Below the pieces are notes generated by a model. The model had not been told where the DNA came from and made no database searches. It was given only the letters and a program-made list of their open reading frames with translations. From contig NC_009483.1 in assembly GCF_000016745.1 (NCBI RefSeq), positions 2,640,001-2,672,000 on the forward strand: a stretch of DNA of 32,000 bases, given 5' to 3'. The DNA is from Geotalea uraniireducens Rf4 (GTDB lineage Bacteria > Desulfobacterota > Desulfuromonadia > Geobacterales > Geobacteraceae). Shown one piece after another: positions 6,386-21,527 of the stretch. Position numbers and translations under genes: made by a program. How positions within the stretch are numbered: the first letter of the stretch is position 1; every line of letters starts with the position of its first letter.

Positions 6386-6443
6386 GTTTCCCCCGGCCGG
6401 CGCCGCCCGCAACATCTAGCGACAATTTTAGCCGATAATTACT

Positions 6444-7785
6444 GGCTCCTCGACGAATTGAGTGGGTAGCCTGGGCCGGGTTGATGTAAGATAGGCCACC
6501 ATCACTCAGCCTGGAGGTTAGTAATCGCTATGAATCCTGAAGATCTTTTTGGTGCTGCTCTTGGAATTGCCATCCCGTGGAAGGTTACCTCTGTTGACTT
6601 CAACAAGAAGTCAAGTCGTTTGGACATAACCATCGACTTCCAGCGGGGAGCCACCTTTCCCTGTCCGGTCTGCGGAACGTTGTCACCAGTCCATGACACC
6701 ACGGAGAAAGAGTGGCGGCATCTGAATTTCTTCCAGTACGAAGCCTACCTTCATGCGCGTGTTCCACGGGTAAAGTGCCCTAACAGCGACTGCGGCGTGA
6801 AGTTGGTCCAGGTACCCTGGGCTCGCGCAGGCTCAGGATTTACGCTGCTGTTTGAGGCCCTGGCCATGACCATGGCTCGTGATTTGCCGGTGAAGGTCAT
6901 GAGCAGGCTGTTTGCCGTTACCGATACCCGTCTATGGCGGTTGATTCAATCCTATGTCGAGAAGGCAAGGGCCGCAGAAGACTTCTCCGAGGTGAAGAGG
7001 GTCGGTGCGGATGAAACCTTTGCCGGGCGCAGTCATGACGAGAAATTCGTCACCTTCTTCTTCGACCTCGACATGCATAAGCTCTTGTTCGGCACGACGG
7101 GAAAGGACAACGAAACAGTCAAGAGCTTCGTCGCGGACCTTAAGTCACATGGCGGCGATCCTGATAGCATCACAGACGCTGCTATTGACATGTCCAAGGC
7201 ATTCATAAAGGGTGTCAAAGAGCAGTTGCCCCATGCCGTGGTCACCTTCGATAAATTCCACGTCATCAAGCTTATGAACGATAAGCTTAGTAAGATAAGG
7301 GCTCAAGAAGCCAGGTTATTTCCTGAAATCCTGAAAAAGAGCAGAAACCTGTTCCTCAAAAATCCAGAGAACCTGACACCGGAAGAGGAACAGCGCCTGG
7401 ATGCCATTATCACCAGTCAAAGCTTAAGGAGTACGGAAGCTTACATGCACAAGCTGAACCTTCAGAACGTCTATTTTGCTTCAAGCCGAACGGAGGCAGA
7501 AACCCTGTTGACCAAATGGCATCGGAAAGCCGCCGCAAGCTCAATCCAACTCATCAAGAACATGGCCGAATCTGTAAAAGAGCATTGGGATGGCATTCTG
7601 GCACATTTTGAAAGCGGCCTGACTAGCGGCTTCATTGAGGGCATCAACAGCCTAATTCAATCAGCCAAAACTCGGGCACGAGGCTATCGGAATCCTGACA
7701 ACTTGATCTGCATGGCTTATCTGGTTGCAGGCAAGCTCAACCTAAAGTCGCTATTCCCTCTACCCACTTGATTCGTTGCAGAGCC
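6444..7785 (+). mobile_element. Complete ISL3-family insertion sequence (1342 bp) with imperfect terminal IRs and an 8-bp target-site duplication
   Basis: IRL 6444-6466 is GGCTCCTCGACGAATTGAGTGGG. The reverse complement of IRR 7763-7785 is GGCTCTGCAACGAATCAAGTGGG, matching at 18/23 positions. Identical TAATTACT lies directly outside both ends (6436-6443 and 7786-7793). The transposase stop lies inside IRR. Confidence 0.9.
6530..7771 (+). CDS. ISL3-family transposase (N-terminal zinc-finger + DDE domain)
   Basis: 413 aa, uninterrupted. Zinc-finger CPVCG...CPNSDCG. Core GADETF...FDKFHVIKL...GFIEGINSLIQSAKTRARGYRN is typical of IS204/IS1001/IS1096/IS1165-type (ISL3) transposases. Confidence 0.9.
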   Translation: MNPEDLFGAALGIAIPWKVTSVDFNKKSSRLDITIDFQRGATFPCPVCGTLSPVHDTTEKEWRHLNFFQYEAYLHARVPRVKCPNSDCGVKLVQVPWARAGSGFTLLFEALAMTMARDLPVKVMSRLFAVTDTRLWRLIQSYVEKARAAEDFSEVKRVGADETFAGRSHDEKFVTFFFDLDMHKLLFGTTGKDNETVKSFVADLKSHGGDPDSITDAAIDMSKAFIKGVKEQLPHAVVTFDKFHVIKLMNDKLSKIRAQEARLFPEILKKSRNLFLKNPENLTPEEEQRLDAIITSQSLRSTEAYMHKLNLQNVYFASSRTEAETLLTKWHRKAAASSIQLIKNMAESVKEHWDGILAHFESGLTSGFIEGINSLIQSAKTRARGYRNPDNLICMAYLVAGKLNLKSLFPLPT

Positions 7786-7935
7786 TAATTACTTGCCTCC
7801 AACCATCGCAATTATACCGCAAAAACAATCGGTGCAAATCATGGGAATTTCAAACAGATAACAACGTGTGGGAGATCAATCAACAGACTTGAGGCAGCGA
7901 CGCAAAGAGCTTACAGAAGGAACCTTATACGCTTA

Positions 7936-9431: not shown

Positions 9432-9824
9432 TCAGCAGCCACAACCACAGTTGTGACAGACCCTACGATTATGATCTTCCGGCGGGACTGTTTCTGGTGC
9501 AAATGCTATTCGATTGACAGCCCTTTTAATATCTTCCATCAGATCAAGGTTCGGACTTTTATCAATGATGTGACCTACACACAGATTTGTAAAGCCATCT
9601 GAAGGCGATGAAATCCGCACAGCATTAAGAACGTCCGTATAACTATTTATATCAATAACCATCTGTTCGTTATCCGCACGTATGAGACTGATGCCGAATC
9701 TTGCAAGATCATCTGCCAGCTCAATTAAAAACAACTCGAATTTTGAGCTGAATTGATCCACGCGCCAATCAGGTCTCACGTGATTTTGACGGTAAAAGGT
9801 GATCACCATGTTTTTTCCAGCCAT
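9432..9824 (-). CDS. Hypothetical protein with a C-terminal Cys-rich tail (…RRVCHNCGCGC-stop)
   Basis: ORF opens at 9827 (TTG). ATG at 9824 with AAGAGG upstream. I recognise no family. The last 8 residues carry 4 Cys and 1 His. It is the last gene of the minus-strand array. Confidence 0.55.
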   Translation of the reverse strand: MAGKNMVITFYRQNHVRPDWRVDQFSSKFELFLIELADDLARFGISLIRADNEQMVIDINSYTDVLNAVRISSPSDGFTNLCVGHIIDKSPNLDLMEDIKRAVNRIAFAPETVPPEDHNRRVCHNCGCGC

Positions 9825-9874
9825 CAATAGAAACCTCTTAACATTTAAAGTATGTACTTCGTAGTATCAATTAT

Positions 9875-10258
9875 TTAACCGGCAGCCTTTCTTTGCATGG
9901 AGCTGAAAATCATATCCAGCACCGCCTTCTGCTTCGCTTCATATTTATTCAGTACTGCAAGACAAGTCCCCATGGGAAAGTGCTCGTGCAGATAATCGGC
10001 ATCACGTCCTGACAGTATTACTATTCTATTTTTATCGATCCCGGCTTCTGTTGCATATTTGAATATTTTAGTGCCGTCGAGCATCGGCATCTCCAGATCA
10101 ACCAACAATAGATCGATCTTTTTTTTCTTCATGGCACTCAAAGCCTTTAACGGATTTGTACACGTTTCAACATCCAGAAGCGGATAGAATTCCCTTATAT
10201 AACTGCTTAGAAAATTTAAGAAAGCTGCGTCATCATCAATTATCAATATTTTCCCCAT
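9875..10258 (-). CDS. Single-domain response regulator (CheY-like receiver)
   Basis: 127 aa. ILIIDDD acidic pocket, phospho-acceptor in LLLVDLEMPMLDG, conserved Ser (ILSG) and Lys (LNK). No output domain. ATG at 10258 is preceded by GAGG. Confidence 0.85.
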   Translation of the reverse strand: MGKILIIDDDAAFLNFLSSYIREFYPLLDVETCTNPLKALSAMKKKKIDLLLVDLEMPMLDGTKIFKYATEAGIDKNRIVILSGRDADYLHEHFPMGTCLAVLNKYEAKQKAVLDMIFSSMQRKAAG

Positions 10259-10304
10259 CACGACCTCAACCTGCTAAATATATTCCCGAAACTCTCAACG
10301 TCTA

Positions 10305-11267
10305 TTACTTCAACACCCTCGTTGCGACATTCAACACTTGTATAGGTACATGAAGGTCAAGCAACTTGGCAACCTTCAGGTTGACAATAAGATCAATTTT
10401 TTTTGGGGTGCTTATAGCCATATGTGCCGGTTTTTTGCCTGCGAGTATTTTTGCTGCATAATCACCTGCAATCTGACCCTGCTCCAAAGAGTTGATTTCC
10501 AAGGCAACGAGCGCTCCTTTATCTGAAGCATCCGGCACATGGGATATAACAGGTATTTTACTCTCGTTTGTCCTACGTATTATTTTTTCAAAACTGCGAC
10601 TTACCGGCGTGCTTTCCGATAAATATAGCCAATCCACACGAGATGAGAGCAAAGAACTCAATGCATTGTCAAGCATGGTCGTAGAAGATACGTTCATCTC
10701 TACAACAGCAAAACCCATTTGAGCTCCGATGCGCTTGAGTTCCTTCAACTGAACAACGGAACCAATTTCTCTGGAATTGTATAAAACACCGAGGGTTCTG
10801 ATCGGTTTGACTTCCTGAGCGGCTTTTATCAACGTGACCATGGGTACTTTCGAGCTGACCCCGGTAAAGTTCCCGCCCGGCACTGTCATACTTCTTGTTA
10901 TACCAGTTTCCACAGGCCCGTAGACATCGACAAATACTATGGGAATACTATCAGACTCGCGCATGGCTGCCAGCGTTACCGGAGCACCGTAAGTAATGAT
11001 AATATCAGCACCTATTGCATTAAATTTTCTAATTGTGTTGGCCCAGGAAATTGGGTCAGGGTTTGGAGTCTGAGTAATAATCTCGATATTGCTTTGATCA
11101 TAGCCTTTCTGAGCAAGTGTCCTGATAAAAGCCTTATGAGCTTCTCTGTAGCGAGGGAGGTCGCTTGTTAAAACAGCAGCAACGAGCTTTCTTGCAGCAT
11201 GGGTCGGTGCAGCAACTGTCATTACAAGCAAAATAAGTATTAAATAACAATAAAATTTCAACGGCAT
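10305..11267 (-). CDS. Periplasmic ABC-type substrate-binding protein, ABC_sub_bind / COG2984-like
   Basis: 320 aa. Signal peptide (…VAAPTHA-ARK). Periplasmic-binding-fold pattern KLVAAVLTSD…, GADIIITYGAPVTLAA, TLGVLYN…, VDWLYL… resembles the COG2984 family. No cognate permease in the window. Confidence 0.65.
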   Translation of the reverse strand: MPLKFYCYLILILLVMTVAAPTHAARKLVAAVLTSDLPRYREAHKAFIRTLAQKGYDQSNIEIITQTPNPDPISWANTIRKFNAIGADIIITYGAPVTLAAMRESDSIPIVFVDVYGPVETGITRSMTVPGGNFTGVSSKVPMVTLIKAAQEVKPIRTLGVLYNSREIGSVVQLKELKRIGAQMGFAVVEMNVSSTTMLDNALSSLLSSRVDWLYLSESTPVSRSFEKIIRRTNESKIPVISHVPDASDKGALVALEINSLEQGQIAGDYAAKILAGKKPAHMAISTPKKIDLIVNLKVAKLLDLHVPIQVLNVATRVLK

Positions 11268-11292
11268 GTCGCCAGCTCCGTAACAGGTAATA

Positions 11293-13431
11293 CTACCATT
11301 TTGTGCTCACATAAGCCGTTACAATATGTACAGTTCCGTCAAATAACGAAGAATATTTATCATTATAATCTTTCAGCTGATATTCAAGAGAACAGGTCAG
11401 GTTCTTGGTTAAATGATAATTCCCACGGGCCGAGAAGGAAGTCTCAACCGTCTTCAGGTGTGATATATCTTTAATCCCCGTGGTATTGTCATTGGGGGTA
11501 AACGATTTAATCTCCGGATTAAACTCTGAAAGCGAGAACACCTGTTGCAATGTCAGGGATATGTCCGATTTATCCGAATATTGATAAGCCGTATTTAACG
11601 AGTAGAACTGGGCCTTTGACGTGTAATTGGAAGCGGCTTCACTGCCAGCCCCTACTATTGTAAACAACACAGCTTGATCAGTGCTGCTATGTAAATATCC
11701 ATAATTGGCACTGACAGTGAGCTTTTCAACCGGGACAAACCAGAAGCCCGCAGTAACATTATCAGTTGCCTTATCCCGCGATAAAAGGTGAGAAAATAGT
11801 GCATATTTTAGAGGGTCTATCGAGACGATAGTTCTTCTCTCAATTTGGTCATTGCTCTCCCGGATGCTCCGATAGTTTGCCGTCACTCCCCATCGACCAG
11901 TCATGTTATAGTTGGTTAGCAGTTCGCCTTCGTGCTTATTTGCAAATGAGGTGCCATAGGAAGGATGGTCCGTTGTGGTGTAGTTGTAACGGGCGCTTAG
12001 TCTGAGCCCTTTCAGCGGTCGGATGAGCAATGCAAGAGTCCCCCGGTGGGTATCCTGGGTTTCATTTAAAAACCAGTTCAGTCTTTCATCGCTGTTAGAA
12101 GGCAAATCACGATGCAGGAACTCTCCCTTATATTCGCCCTTAATCGTAACAAGATTGTTCGGTCTGAGCGACAACGTGGCTACTATCACATCCTTCTCCG
12201 TGCTGATGGAAGGTCTGACAGCCAGCGTGTTCTGCACAAAAAAACTGTTGGTAATAAAGGCCGGGCTGTTATTATCCACTTCCTGCCGCCGGTACTTCAG
12301 TCCCAGGGAGAATTCTTTGAAAGGTGTATAGACAAAGTCACCAGCCACATTGTGTAGATTAACCGATGCCTGCTCTGCGCCTTTTGTATCGCTAAGCGTC
12401 GAGAGATTATCCCTTTTGCCGTACGTATAAGAAGCAGCTCCAACAATACCGCCGGCCAGTGATGTGTGCAACTTGACCGTCTGGGCAAGATATCGGCTGC
12501 CCGGATCTTCGTTGTGTTCCTGCAAACCGCCGGTTCTATCAAGAACACCCTGGACATTATTACGTGGGGCAAAATCATCCCGAAGCTGAGCGGCATTATT
12601 CACAAACTGCCGGATCTGGAAGTTATATATCAGATCAACTGGGCCGAGGTGCGTGTCGAAACCGAGATTCCCCTCATGGGTCTCACGGTTTACAGATCTT
12701 GACCTCGCAAAAAAGTTGTTCTCGGGGCCTTCAAAAGCAATATCGGCAAAGCGCAGTTGACTAGCTCCCTCTTTTACCATACGCCAGTAACCGAGATTCA
12801 TGTGCAAAGGAAAGTCATGAAGCTTATAGCGAAAGCTTGCCAGGTCCTGTTCTGCTCTAACCCCGTATTTGGTTAAGGAATCATCCTGATGTGGGATATA
12901 ATCCGCCAAGGCACCGCGAAGATCCGCCCGCCCCAGTTGAAATGGCGTATCAAACAGCTTTTCACCAGCCAGATTGTGAAACAACGATTCGGTACGCATG
13001 TGAACACGATATTCTCCCCCATAGTCGAAGAGCATATCGCCATGGTAATCCTTATCGTTTAATATGGCACCGTCAAGCGCGAATTTAAGATCTTGTCCAA
13101 GACTGTTAAAATACCCGCCACCAATAAGCCCCGAATGAAGGTAGTCATATTGCGCAGCACGTCCTCCATAATTGTCGACTGATAAAAATCTGTAACCGGT
13201 AAAACCACCCAGAATAGTATGGGTTTCAACCTTTTTAACCGCCGCACTTTCTTCTTCGAGCTGAATGCCCTCTCCTAATTCGCTGCTGTTTTCAGCATTA
13301 TCATCATTGTTTAATGGTTTTACACCTGGCGATATGTTCTGGTTTTCTGCAGCTAATGTTAATGTGGCTGTCAAATTCAACAGGAACATTGTCACAACAA
13401 TCAGGCACGTCATACGGATCAGATTAGTCAC
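11293..13431 (-). CDS. Outer-membrane beta-barrel protein, MtrB/PioB-like (decaheme-associated porin)
   Basis: About 712 aa. ORF opens at 13461 (TTG). I prefer GTG at 13431 (AAGGAGA 6 nt upstream), which gives signal peptide VTNLIRMTCLIVVTMFLLNLTATLTLA-AEN. C-terminal aromatic residue (…YVSTKW). Abundant alternating Y/G/N/T strand-like segments. Sits immediately downstream of an MtrA-family decaheme gene, as in mtrAB/pioAB/mtoAB. The family call rests mainly on size, barrel features and context. Confidence 0.65.
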   Translation of the reverse strand: MTNLIRMTCLIVVTMFLLNLTATLTLAAENQNISPGVKPLNNDDNAENSSELGEGIQLEEESAAVKKVETHTILGGFTGYRFLSVDNYGGRAAQYDYLHSGLIGGGYFNSLGQDLKFALDGAILNDKDYHGDMLFDYGGEYRVHMRTESLFHNLAGEKLFDTPFQLGRADLRGALADYIPHQDDSLTKYGVRAEQDLASFRYKLHDFPLHMNLGYWRMVKEGASQLRFADIAFEGPENNFFARSRSVNRETHEGNLGFDTHLGPVDLIYNFQIRQFVNNAAQLRDDFAPRNNVQGVLDRTGGLQEHNEDPGSRYLAQTVKLHTSLAGGIVGAASYTYGKRDNLSTLSDTKGAEQASVNLHNVAGDFVYTPFKEFSLGLKYRRQEVDNNSPAFITNSFFVQNTLAVRPSISTEKDVIVATLSLRPNNLVTIKGEYKGEFLHRDLPSNSDERLNWFLNETQDTHRGTLALLIRPLKGLRLSARYNYTTTDHPSYGTSFANKHEGELLTNYNMTGRWGVTANYRSIRESNDQIERRTIVSIDPLKYALFSHLLSRDKATDNVTAGFWFVPVEKLTVSANYGYLHSSTDQAVLFTIVGAGSEAASNYTSKAQFYSLNTAYQYSDKSDISLTLQQVFSLSEFNPEIKSFTPNDNTTGIKDISHLKTVETSFSARGNYHLTKNLTCSLEYQLKDYNDKYSSLFDGTVHIVTAYVSTKW

Positions 13432-13469
13432 CCGCAATCTCCTTATTATCAAAATCGACAATTGATATT

Positions 13470-14477
13470 TTACTGGCGTAGAGAACCGGGGCCAGTGACA
13501 GCCGGAGTTGGAATATCCGTACCGTGAATCTGGGAATGGCAGTCAGTGCAACGATTGGAAAAAAGCTGTTTATTACCGGCAGCAGTGTTCACAGTATGCC
13601 CGCCATGACATTGCAGGCAAAGGAAAGGCATAGCAGCATTAAGCAGATGGTTGTTAATCGACCCGTGAGCAGAATGGCAATTGGCACAGTTTTCAGTTAC
13701 GTCACCATGTTCGAAAACAAAAGGCCCCTGCTTTTCCATATGGCATCGGGTGCAGGTTTCTTTCGGGGTATTTCCTTTCAGAAGCTTGTCCTGCGTCGAA
13801 CCATGCACATCATGACAGTCAACGCAGGCCATCTTCTTTTCCATCAGGGGATGATGGGAAAACAGGTTATTCTCAACCTTTACTTGAGGATGGCAGCCAT
13901 AACAAAGCTCTGCCATTTCCTCACGGCTTACCTTCTGCTGAGGGCCTTGATGGAGTTTGTGACAGTCGAAACAACTGACATCGTTCAACGCATGTGTGCC
14001 GGCATTCCAGTGGGCGAGAGTGGGGATGGAAGCTGCAGAATGACACTTGAGACAGATGAGGGATTGCGCCTGCGGGGGGAGGTTCATGATATCCAGGAAT
14101 TTTTTCGTATCGCATTTCTTTTTGAGCTTATCGTTGAGTTCGGGGTCATCTTCAATTTCGGCAATGGCAAGACTTCCCGGGCCATGACATGACTCGCAAT
14201 TGACCAGAGGCAATCCGGTTCCCGGCTTTAACTGCTCGCCATGAATACTGTGTTTAAAGTCATCGGTGATCTTATCATGCTTATGACACCTGGCAACGCA
14301 GTTGTCCGTCCCCACATAATCGGCATCAAGCCTGCCGACAATCATCTTTTCATATTCATGGACAGGCAAGAGTGGTTTGCTCTGCTTCAGTTCTGCACAT
14401 GCAGCAAACAGAAAAGGGGCTGCGAAAAACATTGGCAAGATAATATAACGGAACAAAGGCCTGTCTTTCAATTCCAT
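13470..14477 (-). CDS. Decaheme c-type cytochrome, MtrA/DmsE family
   Basis: 335 aa. Ten CXXCH motifs: CVARCH, CESCH, CLKCH, CFDCH, CYGCH, CVDCH, CTRCH, CANCH, CLQCH, CTDCH. Blocks match my recollection of Shewanella MtrA: CTRCHMEKQGPFVFEHGDVTENCANCHSAHGS versus [32 protein letters not shown], and a C-terminal CxxCHSQ[IV]HG. N-terminal signal sequence. Confidence 0.9.
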   Translation of the reverse strand: MELKDRPLFRYIILPMFFAAPFLFAACAELKQSKPLLPVHEYEKMIVGRLDADYVGTDNCVARCHKHDKITDDFKHSIHGEQLKPGTGLPLVNCESCHGPGSLAIAEIEDDPELNDKLKKKCDTKKFLDIMNLPPQAQSLICLKCHSAASIPTLAHWNAGTHALNDVSCFDCHKLHQGPQQKVSREEMAELCYGCHPQVKVENNLFSHHPLMEKKMACVDCHDVHGSTQDKLLKGNTPKETCTRCHMEKQGPFVFEHGDVTENCANCHSAHGSINNHLLNAAMPFLCLQCHGGHTVNTAAGNKQLFSNRCTDCHSQIHGTDIPTPAVTGPGSLRQ

Positions 14478-15356
14478 CTAGTCCTCTCGTATCCCCTTGG
14501 TTGTTGTATAAATAAAACCTTTCACAATCGGGTTTTGGCTTTTCTTGATTTCTGCAGGTGTGCCGACTTCAACAATTCTTCCACCATGCATCATGGCAAT
14601 TCGGTCTGAAATATAAAGGGCAAAGTTCAAATCATGGGTAACGATAACCGTAGTATTTTTGGTTGTCTCTTTGAGTTTTAGAATTGTGTTGGCGAGTTCG
14701 TCTGTCGTCACCGGATCAAGCTCAGCGGTAGGTTCGTCGTACAGTATCAGGTCAGGATTCATGGCAAGTGAGCGCGCAATTGCCACCCTTTTTTTCATTC
14801 CTCCCGAAAGTTCGGAGGTACGCAGATTTTCCTTACCGGCCAGACCCACCTGATCCAGTTTTTCCTTAATGATCTCCTTTATCTTGTATTCCTTACATAT
14901 CCGCTTTTCCCTTAACCATAATCCGACGTTTTCCCCAACCGTCAGCGAGTTAAACAGTGCCGATGATTGAAAAACCATACTATAGCGATAATCCCGCTCC
15001 GACTGCTTTTTGTTATTCGCGAAGATGGGAAAGCCGTCAATATAAATCTCACCGCTGTCAGGATGCTCCAGCTTCACTATATGCTTTAACAGCACACTTT
15101 TACCTGTGCCGGATGGTCCTATAATTGAAAATGTTTCCCCGGCAAAGATCTCCAAATCAATGTCTTGAAGTACATGCAGTTCGCCAAAATACTTGTTAAG
15201 CTTTTCCACCTTGATATCAACGCCACGGGTATCATTAAGATTTACCGTACACTCGCAGCCGTCATCATGTAAAATTGAACCAGTCAGACCGTGCTTCAAC
15301 TTTTCAAACACACTCACGTTCCTTTTCCCTTGGTATTGAAACGAGTCAATACCCAA
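14478..15356 (-). CDS. ABC transporter ATP-binding protein, MlaF/Ttg2A-like
   Basis: Walker A GPSGTGKS, signature LSGGMKKR, Walker B LILYDEPTAELD, H-loop VTHD. Overall MlaF-like (…VEKLNKYFG…, …NPIVKGFI…). The start is uncertain: TTG at 15356 or GTG at 15317. The stop codon (14478-14480) abuts the cytochrome ATG (14475-14477). Confidence 0.8.
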   Translation of the reverse strand: MGIDSFQYQGKRNVSVFEKLKHGLTGSILHDDGCECTVNLNDTRGVDIKVEKLNKYFGELHVLQDIDLEIFAGETFSIIGPSGTGKSVLLKHIVKLEHPDSGEIYIDGFPIFANNKKQSERDYRYSMVFQSSALFNSLTVGENVGLWLREKRICKEYKIKEIIKEKLDQVGLAGKENLRTSELSGGMKKRVAIARSLAMNPDLILYDEPTAELDPVTTDELANTILKLKETTKNTTVIVTHDLNFALYISDRIAMMHGGRIVEVGTPAEIKKSQNPIVKGFIYTTTKGIRED

Positions 15357-15427
15357 AAATGTAGGTCATACTACCAAAGCAGACAATATTAATGCAAGGA
15401 GAGAATAGCCTAATAATATTTTATTAA

Positions 15428-15865
15428 CTAAAAAAGATATTTGTAGGGATTGTTAAAATAGTTCTTATGACGGTATATAAATTGAGTCAAAAGAAGAATG
15501 GCCAAAGCAGCTGCTATATTATTGATCCACAGGGCTTCCTGTTGCACCCGGGAGCCTACGAGTTTCTCCAGTTCCCGGGGGGTAATGAAACTCAGATTAA
15601 CGATAGTATTGATCACCTGGAATAAGTTGTAACCCAGCAACAAATACCAGGTGAGCAATTGACGTTTCATGATCCCTAAAAAGAGATAAAGGCAAATGAG
15701 ACTGTCGACAATAACCAGCGCCTTGGCCGATGTTCCCACATAAATATTGCCGAGAAATGGGAACGGATTGCCAAAAGTAGACGCTGAAACCATAAAGAAA
15801 AAAAGATACAGACCGGTTAAGAGAGTTAATCCCAAGGGGCGGCGTAACTCGTCACTATCTTCCAT
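15428..15865 (-). CDS. Hypothetical integral membrane protein (about 4 TM segments)
   Basis: 145 aa. ATG with AAGGAT 7 nt upstream. Four hydrophobic stretches. Too small to be an MlaE-type permease, and I recognise no permease motifs. Confidence 0.55.
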   Translation of the reverse strand: MEDSDELRRPLGLTLLTGLYLFFFMVSASTFGNPFPFLGNIYVGTSAKALVIVDSLICLYLFLGIMKRQLLTWYLLLGYNLFQVINTIVNLSFITPRELEKLVGSRVQQEALWINNIAAALAILLLTQFIYRHKNYFNNPYKYLF

Positions 15866-15905
15866 ATTTTGATCCTTATCCAGACGTGTCGTATTTACGG
15901 CATGA

Positions 15906-16007
15906 CTACTTCGATTTTTTTCGCATGTCGCTTATGGCAACGCAAACAAAGATGATTATCATAACCACGGCGATAAACAGCCAATCGGCTGAGCTGAAAC
16001 CGAACAT
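15906..16007 (-). CDS. Small single-TM peptide (33 aa), not in the ORF track
   Basis: The minus strand reads ATG TTC GGT … = MFGFSSADWLFIAVVMIIIFVCVAISDMRKKSK-stop. AAAGGAGA sits 3 nt upstream of the ATG. One hydrophobic helix plus a basic tail. Confidence 0.45.
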   Translation of the reverse strand: MFGFSSADWLFIAVVMIIIFVCVAISDMRKKSK

Positions 16008-16032
16008 AAATCTCCTTTATTTCAAAAGTTGA

Positions 16033-17088
16033 CCTGATTGGCCCTCATCTTCAGCCAATGGAGAAAAGGACGTATTCTGTCACATGTCTAGAGTAGTGTC
16101 ATAGTGAAATAAGCCAAGGAGGCCACTATGACGAAGAATCACTTTCAGTTTCAACAAGGGCTCAGCTTGAACGACTTTTTGTACAGCTATGGCACTGAAG
16201 AGCAATGTTCAGCGATCTTGGAAAAGAGCCGCTGGCCCCAGGGTTTCAAATGTCCTTCCTGTCAGAGTACCAGCCACTGTGTAGTCTGGCATGCACAAGT
16301 CAAAACATTTCAGTGCAATCGGTGTCATACCCAGACAACGCTGACCGCAGGCTCGATTTTTCACTCAACCAAGTTGCCGCTGGTCCAATGGTTTCAGGCC
16401 ATGTACTTTCTCACGCAAACCAAGAACAATGTCTCGGCTCTGGAGTTGAAGCGCCTGATCGGTGTTTGCTACAAAACCGCATGGCGTGTGAAGCACAAGC
16501 TCATGCAAGTTATGGTTGAACAGGAGCAGGACACGATTTTGCTCGGCCGGGTCGAAGTAGATGATGCCTACCTGGGTGGAGAAAACCCAGGAGGCAAGGC
16601 CGGGCGAGGTTCGGAAAACAAGACGCCGTTTATTGCTGCTGTTGAAACCAATGAAAAGGGCCATCCACTTCGTGCTGTGTTTCAAAGGTGCCAGCCTTTA
16701 ACCGCGAAGTAGTCACCGAATGGGCAAAACGGTCACTGTCAGCTTCAGCGACAGTGGTAAGCGACGGACTGGCCTGCTTTCGTGCAGTTACCGAGGCTGG
16801 ATGTTTCCATACCCCAACCATTGTCGGGAAGAAACGCAAGAGTACCGACATTGTGTGTTTCAATTGGGTCAATACCATTCTCGGCAACCTCAAGACGTCG
16901 ATCTCTGGAACGTACCATGCATTTGATTTCGAAAAGTATGGAACTCGTTACCTGGCTGAGGTTCAATACCGATTCAACCGCCGGAAGGATCTGCGCGGCA
17001 TGCTCTCGCGACTGATCTCGGCGGCGGCTACTACTGGCAAGCATCCCGAGCACAATCTCAGACTGGCTGAAGATTGGCGCTAATCAGG
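16033..17088 (+). mobile_element. IS1595-family (ISXO2-like) insertion sequence, 1056 bp, with IRs and an 8-bp target-site duplication
   Basis: IRL 16033-16059 is CCTGATTGGCCCTCATCTTCAGCCAAT. The reverse complement of IRR 17062-17088 is CCTGATTAGCGCCAATCTTCAGCCAGT, matching at 22/27 positions. Identical AAAGTTGA directly flanks both ends (16025-16032 and 17089-17096). Confidence 0.85.
16128..17083 (+). pseudogene. IS1595-family transposase, split by a single-nucleotide frameshift
   Basis: The N-terminal part (16128-16712) has the zinc-ribbon CPSCQ…CNRCH. The C-terminal part (from about 16682 in the -1 frame) has the ISXO2-like DDE region …VVSDGLACFRAV…. The two parts join as …LRAVF|SKVPAFNREVV if one T is restored to the T-run at 16680-16682. 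AAGGAGG SD lies before 16128. Confidence 0.8.
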
Positions 17089-18016
17089 AAAGTTGATCAA
17101 GTGCACAGCGGACCTCCTGATAATCAGGATTGAGCTTGAGCGCTTCATGCAGATATTCCTCGGCATATCGCGGCATATCCATCTTCACACAACATTGTCC
17201 AAGATAATAAAATATCTCAGGCAGCGGAAATTGTTCGCAAAAAAACGTATCGTCAATAATGTCCTGTAGTATGGCTGCCGCCTCTTCGTATTCACCCCGT
17301 TCATACACGAAAAATGCCGCCGCAACCGCTTCCAGATAATCAACCACTGGTATCCGCGGCAGTTCCCCACCTGCAATCTGCTGCAAACGAACCTCTAGTT
17401 TTTGCGCTTCCTTTGATTCCAGAGCACAAAGTATACCACGCCAACAAACAGAAGCGTCCTGGTACTTGCCCAGCAGATAACAAACCTCTCCGAGCTTGTT
17501 CCTGACAATTACATGTTCAGGAGATAACTGCAACGCCTTACGGAGGAAATCCTCCGCGCGGTAAAGCGTAACCGTAGATAAATGCAAAGCGGAAAGCCGC
17601 AACCCTTTATCAAGGAGAGTTATGCCGATCTCTAAGGGAAACTGCGGGTTTTCCGGCTCGATCAAAGCAAATATTTTCAAATAATTAATTCTTCTATCCA
17701 GGTAAGTAATTTCCACATCTTTATGCTCAAGCATAATGATATGGCTGGCAAGTTCTGAAAGATAGTGGGGATAGGCCTCTTTCAGCAGCATCGCATAGCG
17801 CGCGCTCAAAACAGAGTCGGGATTTGCACGCAACAGTTGATAAATGCCGCGGCCAACGGCATCGTATGAGGGATAAGGACCGTCAAGGGCCGCGTAGTCT
17901 TCTTCCAAAAGAGGGATAGGAATTTCCCCGTATGGAATCCTGATCCTTCCGTCAAGGCCTGTCAGAATGGCGTCTTCCGGAGGTTCAAAATAGCGGATTC
18001 CCGGAATCGGTGTCAA
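17084..18016 (-). CDS. TPR-repeat protein
   Basis: 310 aa. Repeated A-x-x-x-Y/F…A…P helical-pair patterns (…YRAEDFLRKALQLSPEH…, …YAEEYLHEALKLNPDY…). Only a TTG start is available at 18016, with a weak SD. The last codon and the stop (TCC TGA) are supplied by the IS1595 end. Confidence 0.7.
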   Translation of the reverse strand: MTPIPGIRYFEPPEDAILTGLDGRIRIPYGEIPIPLLEEDYAALDGPYPSYDAVGRGIYQLLRANPDSVLSARYAMLLKEAYPHYLSELASHIIMLEHKDVEITYLDRRINYLKIFALIEPENPQFPLEIGITLLDKGLRLSALHLSTVTLYRAEDFLRKALQLSPEHVIVRNKLGEVCYLLGKYQDASVCWRGILCALESKEAQKLEVRLQQIAGGELPRIPVVDYLEAVAAAFFVYERGEYEEAAAILQDIIDDTFFCEQFPLPEIFYYLGQCCVKMDMPRYAEEYLHEALKLNPDYQEVRCALDQLS

Positions 18017-18036
18017 TTCTTTAAGATTTATATGGT

Positions 18037-18885
18037 TTATGGCTGCGTCTCCTCTGATTCCCTGTCGGGAAAGGTATTTATAGCGGCTGATTCGCCGACC
18101 ATTTTGTAGATTTTCACATTATCCCACGGCTCATCCATGATGCCATCATGGATGGCCCAGCTGCGGCCACGTACTGATTTCTCCATACCAGGCATACGAA
18201 ACGGAGAGGAGCCGTCCATCCTCTTGCAAAGTACCCCCCCCGGCCTAAACCCTTCATTTATCACAAGCATCAGCCTTTTGCCGGTTATATAATCAAAACC
18301 GTATTTTTCGTAACGGATAGCGTTGTCATAAGTAAGCGGCTCGGCAACAATCATCTCCATACCCAAACCATCCACGAATCGCTCGAAGAGAGCAAAGAAC
18401 TCCCTGAACATCTTCAAACCCCGATGGGTTTGATTCGGAAAAAGGCCGGCCCCCATGGCTGAGATTTCCTCCGGGATATTACGGCCAAGACTGGTAAAAC
18501 AATTGTCCATGCCGGAACTATCCTTATCCACATTGAAACGTGGCGCACGAGGATCATTAATAATACAGAATGCCAGTTCCATCTGGCGATAATGGGTATC
18601 TGCAAGCTCAAGAAAAAAAACCTTATCGTCGTCAAACTCACGCATCCTTGCCTCGATACGCAGGATACCCAGACCGCGCGGGGCGATAACGGTGATTTTT
18701 CGTTCACCGTCTGCACCGCAAAAGTTTACTGCAGAGACAGCCAAAATATCAAAGAGCCGCGGCGGAATAATTCTTTTATAAATCATCTCCTTCTCGACTG
18801 CATCAAGAAGGTTAATGTCCCTCAGGGAAAAAAGCGGCTTCCCCTGAAGGTCGGTCAGCTGTTCATTTCCCGGAAGTCTGGCCAT
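18037..18885 (-). CDS. Hypothetical protein (282 aa), translationally overlapped with the upstream deacetylase gene
   Basis: Long uninterrupted ORF with normal amino-acid composition. ATG at 18885 (the ORF track opens at TTG 18894), overlapping the HDAC-like gene's 3' end (18863) by 23 nt. No family recognised with confidence. Region …HRGLKMFREFFALFERFV…YEKYGFDY… is faintly GNAT-like. Confidence 0.6.
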   Translation of the reverse strand: MARLPGNEQLTDLQGKPLFSLRDINLLDAVEKEMIYKRIIPPRLFDILAVSAVNFCGADGERKITVIAPRGLGILRIEARMREFDDDKVFFLELADTHYRQMELAFCIINDPRAPRFNVDKDSSGMDNCFTSLGRNIPEEISAMGAGLFPNQTHRGLKMFREFFALFERFVDGLGMEMIVAEPLTYDNAIRYEKYGFDYITGKRLMLVINEGFRPGGVLCKRMDGSSPFRMPGMEKSVRGRSWAIHDGIMDEPWDNVKIYKMVGESAAINTFPDRESEETQP

Positions 18886-20020
18886 ATTCACCAATAATAA
18901 CAGGGAAAATCGTTTTTTTAATTGCAGCTACACTCTTCTCGACCGCATCCAGAGCCCTGTTTCGGTCGTCTTCATCAGCCCAGTGCATGGCATCTAGCAG
19001 CATCTTGTGCGGGAAACCCAACGGCCTGATAATCTTTATAAACGATGACGGTAAAGCTGGGGGCAAATCAATGCCGTTCATTATAGCCCAGACAATAGTC
19101 CACGCCCGTGCAACGTTCATAATGTCGTAACCACCGCCACCAACCGCTATCCAAGGGATTTGCAACGCCTTCAATTTCCTGATTATATATGAATAGGCAT
19201 GGGTAGTAATTTCAAGCCTGGTGAGAGGATCGGTGCGAAAGGTATCCGCACCGACCTGCGTAACCAGAACATCCGGGTCGAACGCAGCAATCAAGGGAAA
19301 AGCGACCTCATCAAAAGCCTTCATATATAGGGCGTCATCGGTGTGTTCCAAAAGCGGGATGTTGACAGAATACCCCACCCCCTTGCCGGCGCCTGTTTCA
19401 TTTTCAAATCCGGTCCCCGGGAAAAAATATACTCCGCTTTCGTGAAGAGAAATGGTCAGAACTTGATCGCTGTCGTAAAAAGCATCTTGAACACCATCAC
19501 CGTGATGGGCATCAAGATCAAGATAAACAACCCTTTTCCCTTTAGCGAGCAGTACATTTATGGCAATAACGGCATCGTTCAGATAGGAAAAGCCCGACGC
19601 CTTATTCCTGTGGGCATGGTGCCAACCTCCAGCCAGGTTAAAAGCAAAGTCATACCCTTCTTCGGCAACCAACCGTGCGGCTTCTACCGTTCCGGCTGTT
19701 CCCAGACAGGCCCAGTCATAAACACCTTTAAAAACAGGATTCTCCGTATCACCCAGGCCATAACGAAAGTCCGCTCTCGGTTCTTCAGCAGTACTGAATT
19801 CCTTGAGCTGCGCCAAATAATCAGGGGAATGAAAGGTGAGAAGCTGTTCTTCAGCAATGGGACGGCTTTGACATAACCGCACACCTGGAATCCGGGTCAG
19901 CCCGTAAGCTTGAATGAGCTCATAGGCCAGTCTGTAACGCTGCACTTTGAACGGATGTTCGGCACCGTAACTGTAACGGCTGAAATCCGGCGAATAGATC
20001 AGGGCTGATTTACCTGACAA
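18863..20020 (-). CDS. Histone deacetylase-family protein (AcuC/acetoin-utilisation-type class I deacetylase)
   Basis: 385 aa. Catalytic motifs GGWHHAHRNKASGFSYLNDAV, LDLDAHHGDG, GGGGY. TTG start at 20020 with GGAGAA 5 nt upstream. Confidence 0.85.
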   Translation of the reverse strand: MSGKSALIYSPDFSRYSYGAEHPFKVQRYRLAYELIQAYGLTRIPGVRLCQSRPIAEEQLLTFHSPDYLAQLKEFSTAEEPRADFRYGLGDTENPVFKGVYDWACLGTAGTVEAARLVAEEGYDFAFNLAGGWHHAHRNKASGFSYLNDAVIAINVLLAKGKRVVYLDLDAHHGDGVQDAFYDSDQVLTISLHESGVYFFPGTGFENETGAGKGVGYSVNIPLLEHTDDALYMKAFDEVAFPLIAAFDPDVLVTQVGADTFRTDPLTRLEITTHAYSYIIRKLKALQIPWIAVGGGGYDIMNVARAWTIVWAIMNGIDLPPALPSSFIKIIRPLGFPHKMLLDAMHWADEDDRNRALDAVEKSVAAIKKTIFPVIIGEYGQTSGK

Positions 20021-20225
20021 GCTGTTTCTCCGGTTGCATCAGGAATAGTTGAAATCCCGTCCTTTTCTCATGTGAATTTACAATGTTAGCTGAAGAGCGT
20101 CAACAACTATTTCCCCCCGGACAAGCCCTATTTTTAGGCATGACAGGTGATAATTTAAGCAAAACAGTGAAATCCTCGGGCACACCAGAAGTATGGCAGC
20201 CAATGTTTTCGATATGTTACAGGGT

Positions 20226-20241
20226 TGGCAAAAAGGTTGCT
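20226..20241 (+). promoter_or_regulatory. Sigma-54 (-24/-12) type promoter upstream of the ammonium transporter
   Basis: TGGCAA-AAAGG-TTGCT matches TGGCAC-N5-TTGCW at all but one position. It ends 66 nt upstream of the amt ATG (20307). Confidence 0.6.
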
Positions 20242-20306
20242 AAGGAGATTGTTCTGTCTTTACCCAATGGCGGGTTAAAGAGTAATTACCACGGAGGTAA
20301 TATTAA

Positions 20307-21527
20307 ATGGATGTAATGTCATCGTTGACAAATCTGCGTAACAGTTCTGACGTGTTGTTTCTTATGCTGGGCGCTGTCATGGTTTTTGCCATGCACGCCG
20401 GTTTTGCTTTTCTTGAAGTCGGAACCGTGCGTAAGAAGAACCAGGTAAACGCCTTTGTTAAGATACTTACCGATTGGTCTGTATCTACCATCGTCTACTT
20501 CCTGATCGGCTTTCCCCTTGCTTATGGCATCTCATTTCTCACTCCTGCAGAAAAACTGCTCGGCACCACCCAGGGTTATGATCTGACCCACTTCTTCTTC
20601 CTCCTTTGCTTTGCTGCCTGTATTCCGGCCATCATTTCGGGGGGTATCGCCGAGCGTGCCAAGTTCTGGCCCCAGGTATGTGCAGGTGCAATTTTTGCTG
20701 CCCTTACCTACCCAATTTTTGAGTCGCTCATTTGGGGCAAAAATGCCTCATTACTCCAGGATTTATTTAAAAGCTTCGGTGGCGCCGAATTCCACGATTA
20801 TGCAGGTTCAGTGGTGGTTCATTCAATCGGCGGATGGCTGGCATTACCTGCGGTCATCATTCTTGGCCCGCGCATGGGCCGTTATGTTCGTGGCAAGTCA
20901 CACCCTATCCCCATCAGCAATATCCCATTCCTGGCGCTCGGCTCCTGGATTTTAGCAATCGGCTGGTTTGGCTTCAATGTCATGAGCGCAGGGCATCTGG
21001 ATAAAATATCAGGTTTGGTTGCCGTAAATTCGCTACTTGCAATGGTGGGTGGCGTCCTCTTTGCCCTGATTGCAGGTAAAAATGATCCAGGTTTCGTTCA
21101 CAACGGCGCCCTTGCCGGTCTCATAGCTGTCTGCGCCGGTAGCGATATCATGCATCCCCTGGCCGCTTTCGTAACCGGTGGTATCGCTTCAATCATTTTT
21201 GTTTACGGTTTTCATATTGAACAGGAAAAACTTAAAATTGACGATGTACTTGGCGTCTGGCCTCTGCATGGCGTTATCGGCTCCTGGGGAGGTATTGCTG
21301 CAGGCATCTTCGGTCAAAAGGCGCTGGGAGGAATGGGAGGAGTCACCTTCATCTCGCAACTGACCGGAAGCCTCGTTGCCGTTGTTTTTGCCTTGGTCAA
21401 TGGATTCCTTGTTTATGGCATCCTCTCTAAAACAGTCGGTATCAGACTGGCGGAAGAAGAAGAATTTGCCGGGGCGGATCTCAGCATTCACAGTATCGGA
21501 GCTTATCCCGAAGAGCATGTCAGATAA
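20307..21527 (+). CDS. amt: Ammonium transporter (Amt family)
   Basis: 406 aa, about 11 TM segments. Amt signatures FAMHAGFAFLEVGTVRKKN, DYAGSVVVHSIGGW, GWFGFN, GVWPLHGVIGSWGG. GGAGGT SD lies 8 nt upstream. Confidence 0.9.
   Translation: MDVMSSLTNLRNSSDVLFLMLGAVMVFAMHAGFAFLEVGTVRKKNQVNAFVKILTDWSVSTIVYFLIGFPLAYGISFLTPAEKLLGTTQGYDLTHFFFLLCFAACIPAIISGGIAERAKFWPQVCAGAIFAALTYPIFESLIWGKNASLLQDLFKSFGGAEFHDYAGSVVVHSIGGWLALPAVIILGPRMGRYVRGKSHPIPISNIPFLALGSWILAIGWFGFNVMSAGHLDKISGLVAVNSLLAMVGGVLFALIAGKNDPGFVHNGALAGLIAVCAGSDIMHPLAAFVTGGIASIIFVYGFHIEQEKLKIDDVLGVWPLHGVIGSWGGIAAGIFGQKALGGMGGVTFISQLTGSLVAVVFALVNGFLVYGILSKTVGIRLAEEEEFAGADLSIHSIGAYPEEHVR

Follow-up and report, generated by a model that had tools for sequence, protein, structure and literature searches.

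Polar insertions of insertion sequences (IS) into operons are a classical phenomenon, known for example from IS1 and IS2 in the gal and lac operons of Escherichia coli. Among the IS families, IS1595 reportedly comprises elements that carry an ISXO2-like transposase. For the Geobacterales, operons have been described in which genes of the DmsE/MtoA/MtrA/OmcI type and of the MtrB/PioB-like type occur together with genes of ATP-binding cassette (ABC) ATPases and binding proteins, the role of these operons being unknown (PMC11492766), and omcI has been equated with GSU1228, Geob_2912, and Gura_2291 (PMC9961858). A search of the literature on the IS described below and on the locus tags near omcI (Gura_2290-2295, GSU1227-1231) yielded nothing on this insertion or on the expression of the locus. 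Here we analyze a stretch of 32,000 bp from the genome of Geotalea uraniireducens Rf4 (NC_009483.1, positions 2,640,001 to 2,672,000; referred to as the window, whose own numbering is used throughout), in which an IS1595-family element separates a gene for a tetratricopeptide repeat (TPR) protein from a gene for a 33-amino acid (aa) membrane peptide within an array that also encodes a DmsE-family cytochrome. We regard it as very likely that the locus is explained as a whole by a recent insertion of this element into the end of the TPR gene, with a probable polar effect on the genes downstream. The event is of an ordinary, textbook kind, namely an IS of a known family that splits an operon and duplicates its target. 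The present analysis adds to this picture natural sequences of the empty site and a comparison with sibling copies that places a base missing from the window copy as an A.

Structure of the insertion

The element spans positions 16033-17088 (1056 bp), and its transposase is encoded on the plus strand, opposite to the gene array. Its left and right terminal inverted repeats (IRL and IRR; Table 1) match at 22 of 27 positions when IRL is compared with the reverse complement of IRR. Directly outside of them lie two identical copies of an 8-bp target sequence, the plus strand of 16025-17096 reading AAAGTTGA / CCTGATTGGCCCTCATCTTCAGCCAAT ... ACTGGCTGAAGATTGGCGCTAATCAGG / AAAGTTGA. The coordinates, the 22 matching positions, and the 8-bp duplication had been put forward in an earlier annotation made from the sequence alone (the original prediction) and were all reproduced; its statement that the element is oriented against the array also holds, the transposase reading on the plus and the array on the minus strand.

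Removal of the element and of one repeat copy yields, on the minus strand, ...GAT CAA CTT TTG AAA TAA AGGAGATTT ATG. In the present sequence, the open reading frame (ORF) of the TPR protein ends with ...ALDQLS, its last Ser codon being completed by the terminal repeat of the IS and its TGA (17084-17086) lying inside IRR; this had been predicted and was confirmed in the reading frames. The stop codon within the right IS end is thus the origin of the new stop of the TPR gene, and the TPR protein has been left almost untouched by the insertion, with ...LLK replaced by ...S. The peptide gene is preceded by TAA-AGGAGA-TTT and has kept its own AGGAGA (16011-16016), next to which the old TAA of the TPR gene remains as an orphan at 16017-16019. 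The insertion point precedes this old TAA by 5 nt and the ATG of the peptide gene by 17 nt, and the spacing between the TPR and peptide genes, which was 9 nt before the insertion, now amounts to 1076 nt. The original prediction had placed the IS on the junction of stop codon and Shine-Dalgarno sequence. The element does lie near this junction, but the insertion itself hit the final three codons of the TPR reading frame.

Seen from the flanks inward, the two termini of the IS (17080-17088 and 16033-16041) read CCTGATTAG and CCTGATTGG. Both contain a TGA, and the right end additionally contains a TAG. Due to these stop codons, translation entering the element at its right end is halted in two of the three frames.

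The empty site in natural populations

Contigs of four metagenome runs were compared with positions 15400-17700 of the window. The groundwater runs X3, X4, and X6, which belong to three study codes, each provided one contig with at least 99% identity to the flanks of the element. In these contigs, position 16024 is joined to position 17089, so that 1064 bases (1056 + 8) are skipped, with eight letters fitting either side and a single AAAGTTGA present. The empty-site contig from X3 has a length of 41 kb and a depth of 131. In addition, metagenome contigs of the Joint Genome Institute (JGI) were scanned for the exact 30-mer that spans the predicted empty junction. The one match was found on the 130.6-kb contig Ga0074193_1000146 (L032), which is 99.6% identical to 14131-16032 and 97.9% identical to 17089-21411 and has one AAAGTTGA that is common to both alignments. 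On this contig, the TPR protein ends with ...ARCALDQLLK, followed by TAA AGGAGATTT ATG and an identical peptide. Some of the data sets with an empty site may share a site or campaign; they are treated as no fewer than two, rather than four, independent observations. The empty site, which the original prediction had suggested looking for in metagenomic reads, is thus present in three groundwater runs and one JGI contig, and these natural contigs match exactly the predicted ancestral arrangement, in which the TPR protein ends ...ALDQLLK-TAA at a distance of 9 nt from the peptide ATG.

The interior of the IS was without cover in X3, X4, and X6 except for a 173-nt piece in X3; given the gaps in contigs and filters, this allows no inference on the presence of the IS elsewhere in these populations. 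As a separate observation, the identity of Ga0074193_1000146 to the window changes near the insertion point, from 99.6% on the peptide side to 97.9% on the TPR side. This step may reflect a recombination boundary between strains.

Sibling copies and family affiliation

The genome that holds the window is a single finished contig of 5,136,364 bases with a G + C content of 54.2% and a completeness of 100%. Besides the window copy, it contains three full copies of the element at 85321, 2899136, and 3747638, each of 1057 bp and mutually identical, and one truncated copy at 1308293-1309174 from which the first 175 bases including the left repeat are gone. Perfect 8-bp repeats, different for each full sibling, flank these copies (ATGTGGAA, ACAAGATA, and TCAATTAA). 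A further copy with 98% identity was found in the wetland metagenome X7, where it is inserted elsewhere with the duplication TTAAATTA. Counting further copies and asking whether their ends and duplication recur had been proposed as checks of the original prediction. As the three full siblings share the same ends and each has its own 8-bp duplication, the ends and the duplication of the window element are not due to chance. The five target octamers (four genomic, one metagenomic) all differ from each other, and five to eight of their eight positions are A or T (62-100% A + T), in comparison with 54% G + C in the genome. This preference is consistent with the landing of the window element in an AT-rich stretch formed by a gene end and a Shine-Dalgarno sequence.

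The intact transposase of the siblings has 318 aa. It matches the ISXO2-like DDE domain PF12762 (E = 4e-44; 150.7 bits, cut-off 27), the zinc ribbon PF12760 in its N-terminal part (residues 22-69; E = 5e-15), and the NCBIfam model NF033547 "IS1595 family transposase" (203 bits, cut-off 75), and it is a clear family member; the element is an IS1595-family insertion sequence. The family is further characterized by catalytic D, D, and N/E/H residues, with a K/R seven residues after the last; in a reading by eye of the sibling protein, VEVDDAY, VVSDGLA, and NWVNTILGNLK would make up a DDN-K pattern. A search of a plasmid collection retrieved just partial matches of 67-74% to IS1595-family genes.

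One unbroken ORF of about 300 aa, which is a criterion of the IS1595 family, is found in the three full siblings and is lacking in the window copy. One A is missing after position 16682, and the window copy is otherwise identical to the siblings (1 base difference in 1057); it reads GTTTCAAAGG at a place where all four siblings and the wetland copy from X7 read GTTTACAAAGG. As a consequence, the transposase frame is split into two fragments (Table 1). Judged by the paralogues, the lost base is the A that follows a TTT run. The window copy is a defective IS1595 member, but still a member. It would have lost the A during transposition or later, and would be unable to make its own transposase and able to move only by means of the enzyme of the three intact siblings.

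Two further observations concern the siblings. The copy at 85321-86377, whose duplication is ATGTGGAA, sits mid-way in a very long open frame, which it splits; without the IS and one repeat copy, this site has one frame that is open over at least 997 codons, the limit of the flanks that were read. Upstream of the truncated copy (1308293-1309174), a strong terminator shape consisting of a hairpin and a T-run is present.

A conserved gene junction split by the element

Orthologues of the TPR protein with 44-71% identity were detected in 34 of the 40 related genomes searched. In all of the 11 loci examined, which derive from 11 related genomes, the peptide gene directly follows the TPR gene. The distance between the TPR stop codon and the peptide ATG is 6-9 nt in ten of these relatives and 27 nt in the remaining one; in same-genus relatives, the junction has the form ...ALDQLY-TAG-GAGATTT-ATG. 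The peptides themselves are 65-84% identical and follow the pattern MFG[FY]S..DW.FI...V...CV.[IV]SDM..K.

The complete array comprises 11 genes in the order deacetylase, 285-aa protein of unknown family, TPR protein, peptide, 145-aa membrane protein, ABC ATPase, DmsE/MtrA-family cytochrome, 722-aa protein, ABC binding protein, receiver protein, and 131-aa protein. It is colinear as a whole in genome G004 from the same genus and in G013 from another genus, and from the TPR gene onward in G006. A different situation was found in G034, which represents another family of the order (L021, C1:2826500-2843000). There, the genes of the TPR protein, the 33-aa peptide, and the receiver protein are adjacent, and no genes of the 145-aa, ABC, cytochrome, barrel, or binding proteins lie between them. 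The block of cytochrome and ABC genes therefore looks like a cassette whose insertion into, or loss from, an older core of TPR, peptide, and receiver genes gave rise to this difference. Since G034 retains the TPR and peptide genes side by side without this block, the junction between them is more conserved than any other in the array, and it is this one that the IS split.

The original prediction had assumed one tightly coupled unit in the past and named unrelated sequence between the TPR gene and the small ORF in relatives as an observation that would speak against it; instead, the peptide gene adjoins the TPR gene in every locus examined. The short junction in ten of 11 relatives, the conserved gene order in G004 and G013, and the natural empty sites all agree with that assumption. 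The outgroups together with the natural empty alleles demonstrate that the genes of the array formerly stood in one tight unit, which the IS has recently split.

Expected consequences for transcription

Apart from the IS, neighboring genes of the array are spaced -32 to 71 nt apart, all on one strand. Terminator prediction for the minus strand gave no credible intrinsic candidate between these genes, and a promoter-like site at a plausible location was seen solely upstream of the deacetylase gene (20103-20075). Short spacing, a common strand, and the absence of predicted terminators make the array look like a single transcription unit. The promoter scan was limited to sigma-70-type consensus sites. 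A separate scan of the window for sigma-54 motifs detected no site relevant to the array. It did reveal a sigma-54-type -24/-12 motif, TGGCAAAAAGGTTGCT, at 20226-20241 on the plus strand, approximately 65 nt upstream of an ammonium-transporter gene (20307-21527); with three such motifs in the window versus 2.6 expected, the placement is suggestive, the count is not.

A polar effect on the porin-cytochrome genes, unless an outward IS promoter drives them, had also been part of the original prediction. A transcript initiated upstream of the deacetylase gene would include about 1 kb of RNA that is antisense to the transposase gene and untranslated, and because of this stretch downstream expression is probably reduced. 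The genes of the peptide, the ABC proteins, the cytochrome, and the barrel protein would be affected by the loss of translational coupling and by polarity of the Rho type, but no reduction would be expected if the downstream genes are supplied by a promoter located within the IS or beyond it. A rut-like stretch in the antisense IS transcript was considered as well and was discarded, the C/G ratio of 1.76 in a single 78-nt stretch (16620-16543) being too weak. On balance, the sequence features make real polarity on the downstream genes somewhat more probable than its absence.

Three observations weigh against parts of the proposed explanation. First, two weak sigma-70-type matches near the left end of the IS read outward on the minus strand (16154-16125 and 16102-16074), the latter with the TG of an extended -10 element. 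Second, all seven genes downstream of the peptide gene are intact, which fits continued use as well as an event too recent for decay. Third, the one-base deletion in the transposase gene could be an assembly error. The first two, together with the AGGAGA retained by the peptide gene, are in favor of an insertion that is neutral for expression or even activating, in which the conduit genes would still be driven from an outward IS promoter, a hybrid one, or an internal one. Both matches, however, reach only 9 of 12 consensus positions, and the scan for outward promoters retrieved 7 sites in the region versus 3.6 +/- 1.8 in shuffled sequences and was rated as no better than chance. Furthermore, the gap of 6-9 nt between the TPR and peptide genes in relatives leaves no room for a promoter at this place. 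A neutral or activating insertion hence appears somewhat improbable, though it deserves serious consideration, and reduced expression of the distal genes is the interpretation that we prefer.

The third observation concerns the state of the element itself. If the frameshift were a sequencing or assembly error, the window copy would be intact and autonomous like its siblings. Only a single base is absent, and the A is present in every other copy, as would be the case after such an error. However, the site reads TTT-A-CAAA, so that the absent base is not part of a long homopolymer, and the genome assembly is finished, consisting of one contig. An error at this position is thus unlikely, and a genuine deletion in a defective copy is favored.

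Age and origin of the insertion

No transposase matches were found in the same-genus genomes G004 and G005, and an IS at the same site was not seen in distant relatives (11 related loci examined). IS1595-family relatives occur in 42 of 150 genomes of the order, the best transposase match being 72%. The copies in the genome are identical or differ by one nucleotide, empty alleles exist in nature, and the element has no match in G004 and G005, which in combination indicates a recent burst in the lineage of this strain. Occupied and empty alleles of one site in near-identical strains, and identical copies at several sites, are indirect signs of mobility of the element. A recent insertion had also been part of the original prediction and is borne out by the perfect duplication, the difference of one base in 1057 from the siblings, the empty site in environmental strains with 98-99.6% identity, and the two same-genus genomes that lack a match. 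Hence, an insertion that is recent and strain-specific, and that splits a conserved junction, is supported by these comparisons. According to the proposed scenario, the final codons of the TPR gene, within the 11-gene minus-strand array, would have been the target of an IS1595-family element, whose transposition generated the AAAGTTGA duplication. The lineage of the sequenced strain would have acquired this insertion recently, with near-identical groundwater strains keeping the site uninterrupted.

The reverse order of events, an older occupied site from which the environmental contigs arose by precise excision of the IS, is extremely improbable. Precise loss between the 8-bp repeats is possible in principle, and just one copy of the repeat is present in the contigs, but the junction is uninterrupted in all 11 related species, the element has no match in the two same-genus genomes, and the window copy is only one nucleotide apart from its siblings. 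Excision as the source of the empty sites was rejected on the grounds that the junction of the TPR and peptide genes is ancestral in the outgroups. That the IS was misplaced at this site during assembly, as can happen with a multi-copy element of about 1 kb, is hardly credible either, in view of the perfect site-specific 8-bp duplication, the copy-specific one-base difference, the single contig with 100% completeness, and two "organism A" read runs (possibly the source data) that contain 97% of the sampled words from the flanks and the IS. A recent transposition into an intact array therefore remains the favored interpretation.

Genes of the array and other features of the window

The features of the locus are compiled in Table 1. 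In the upstream part of the array, the deacetylase gene and the gene of the 285-aa protein overlap by 32 nt, and a gap of 20 nt separates them from the TPR gene. The downstream cytochrome contains nine CXXCH motifs and matches the NCBIfam model TIGR03508 of DmsE-family decahaem cytochromes with 274 bits (cut-off 192). For the 722-aa protein no Pfam family was matched; its signal-like N-terminus and its end, ...STKW as in outer-membrane barrels, make it a putative barrel. The ORF of the ABC ATPase (14478-15356, minus strand) is listed with a TTG start, which lies 46-62 residues before the ABC domain, and alignments with relatives do not begin before residue 11-16; translation probably starts further downstream than listed.

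Table 1. Coordinates of the IS1595-family element, its target site, and the adjoining genes in the window.
Feature	Position	Strand	Remarks
Downstream part of the array, seven genes (145-aa membrane protein to 131-aa protein)	9432-15865	-	Pfam, NCBIfam; gaps 0-71 nt
Gene of 33-aa single-helix membrane peptide	15906-16007	-	One hydrophobic stretch; conserved
Target-site duplication, left copy	16025-16032	.	AAAGTTGA; single copy in empty-site contigs
IRL, left terminal inverted repeat	16033-16059	.	Starts CCTGATTGG; end identical in all full copies
Weak candidate outward promoter	16074-16102	-	ATGACA-17-CAGAAT, TG before second hexamer; consensus scan only, 9/12, not evidence of function
Transposase, N-terminal fragment	16128-16712	+	Zinc ribbon and first half of DDE domain; NF033547 profile positions 1-108
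Transposase, C-terminal fragment	16688-17083	+	Other frame; NF033547 positions 119-215; joined to first fragment in siblings (318 aa)
IRR, right terminal inverted repeat	17062-17088	.	Minus-strand reading starts CCTGATTAG; holds TGA now closing TPR gene
TPR-repeat protein gene, 310 aa	17084-18016	-	Pfam TPR_1, TPR_2; C-terminus changed from ...DQLLK to ...DQLS
Target-site duplication, right copy	17089-17096	.	AAAGTTGA; single copy in empty-site contigs
Upstream part of the array, two genes (histone-deacetylase family; 285-aa protein of unknown family)	18037-20020	-	PF00850 E = 9e-87

The window contains a second, unrelated mobile element at 6436-7793. Its ISL3-family transposase of 413 aa is encoded at 6530-7771 (PF01610, E = 1e-67).

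Implications and comparison with known systems

It is conceivable, if rather doubtful, that the isolate represents a natural polar knock-down or a promoter-rewired variant of an OmcI-type module of cytochrome, barrel, and ABC genes that is intact in the aquifer population. If this were true, the isolate and an empty-site strain would constitute a ready-made genetic test of a locus that is widespread in Geobacteraceae, and physiology measured on the isolate would under-report the function of this locus. A conserved electron-conduit locus may be down-regulated in the isolate relative to wild strains of 98-99.6% identity in which the junction is intact. The split operon is relevant to anyone who uses the strain to study the conduit locus or its deacetylase and TPR partner genes. 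The pair of occupied and empty alleles also offers a natural comparison and, with five AT-rich octamers, a clean and fully documented example of target choice by an IS1595 element.

Among the described systems, the OmcI-type operons of the Geobacterales (PMC11492766) resemble the split array in that a DmsE-family cytochrome is combined with a large protein of barrel-like type, an ABC ATPase, and a substrate-binding protein of the ABC type. They differ in that the paper is silent on an IS, on the 33-aa peptide gene, and on the three genes further upstream (deacetylase, unknown, and TPR). With the IS1595 family, the element shares a size of about 1 kb, one transposase gene, the zinc ribbon and DDE_Tnp_IS1595 domains, imperfect inverted repeats, and the 8-bp duplication, whereas the transposase of the window copy is frameshifted and no transposase in the other genomes searched exceeds 72% identity. 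The classical polar insertions are resembled by the location of the IS between closely spaced co-directional genes, by its opposite orientation, and by the lower distal expression that would be expected. In contrast to them, polarity is here deduced from sequence, the neighboring ORFs are essentially whole, and the distal ribosome-binding site is intact.

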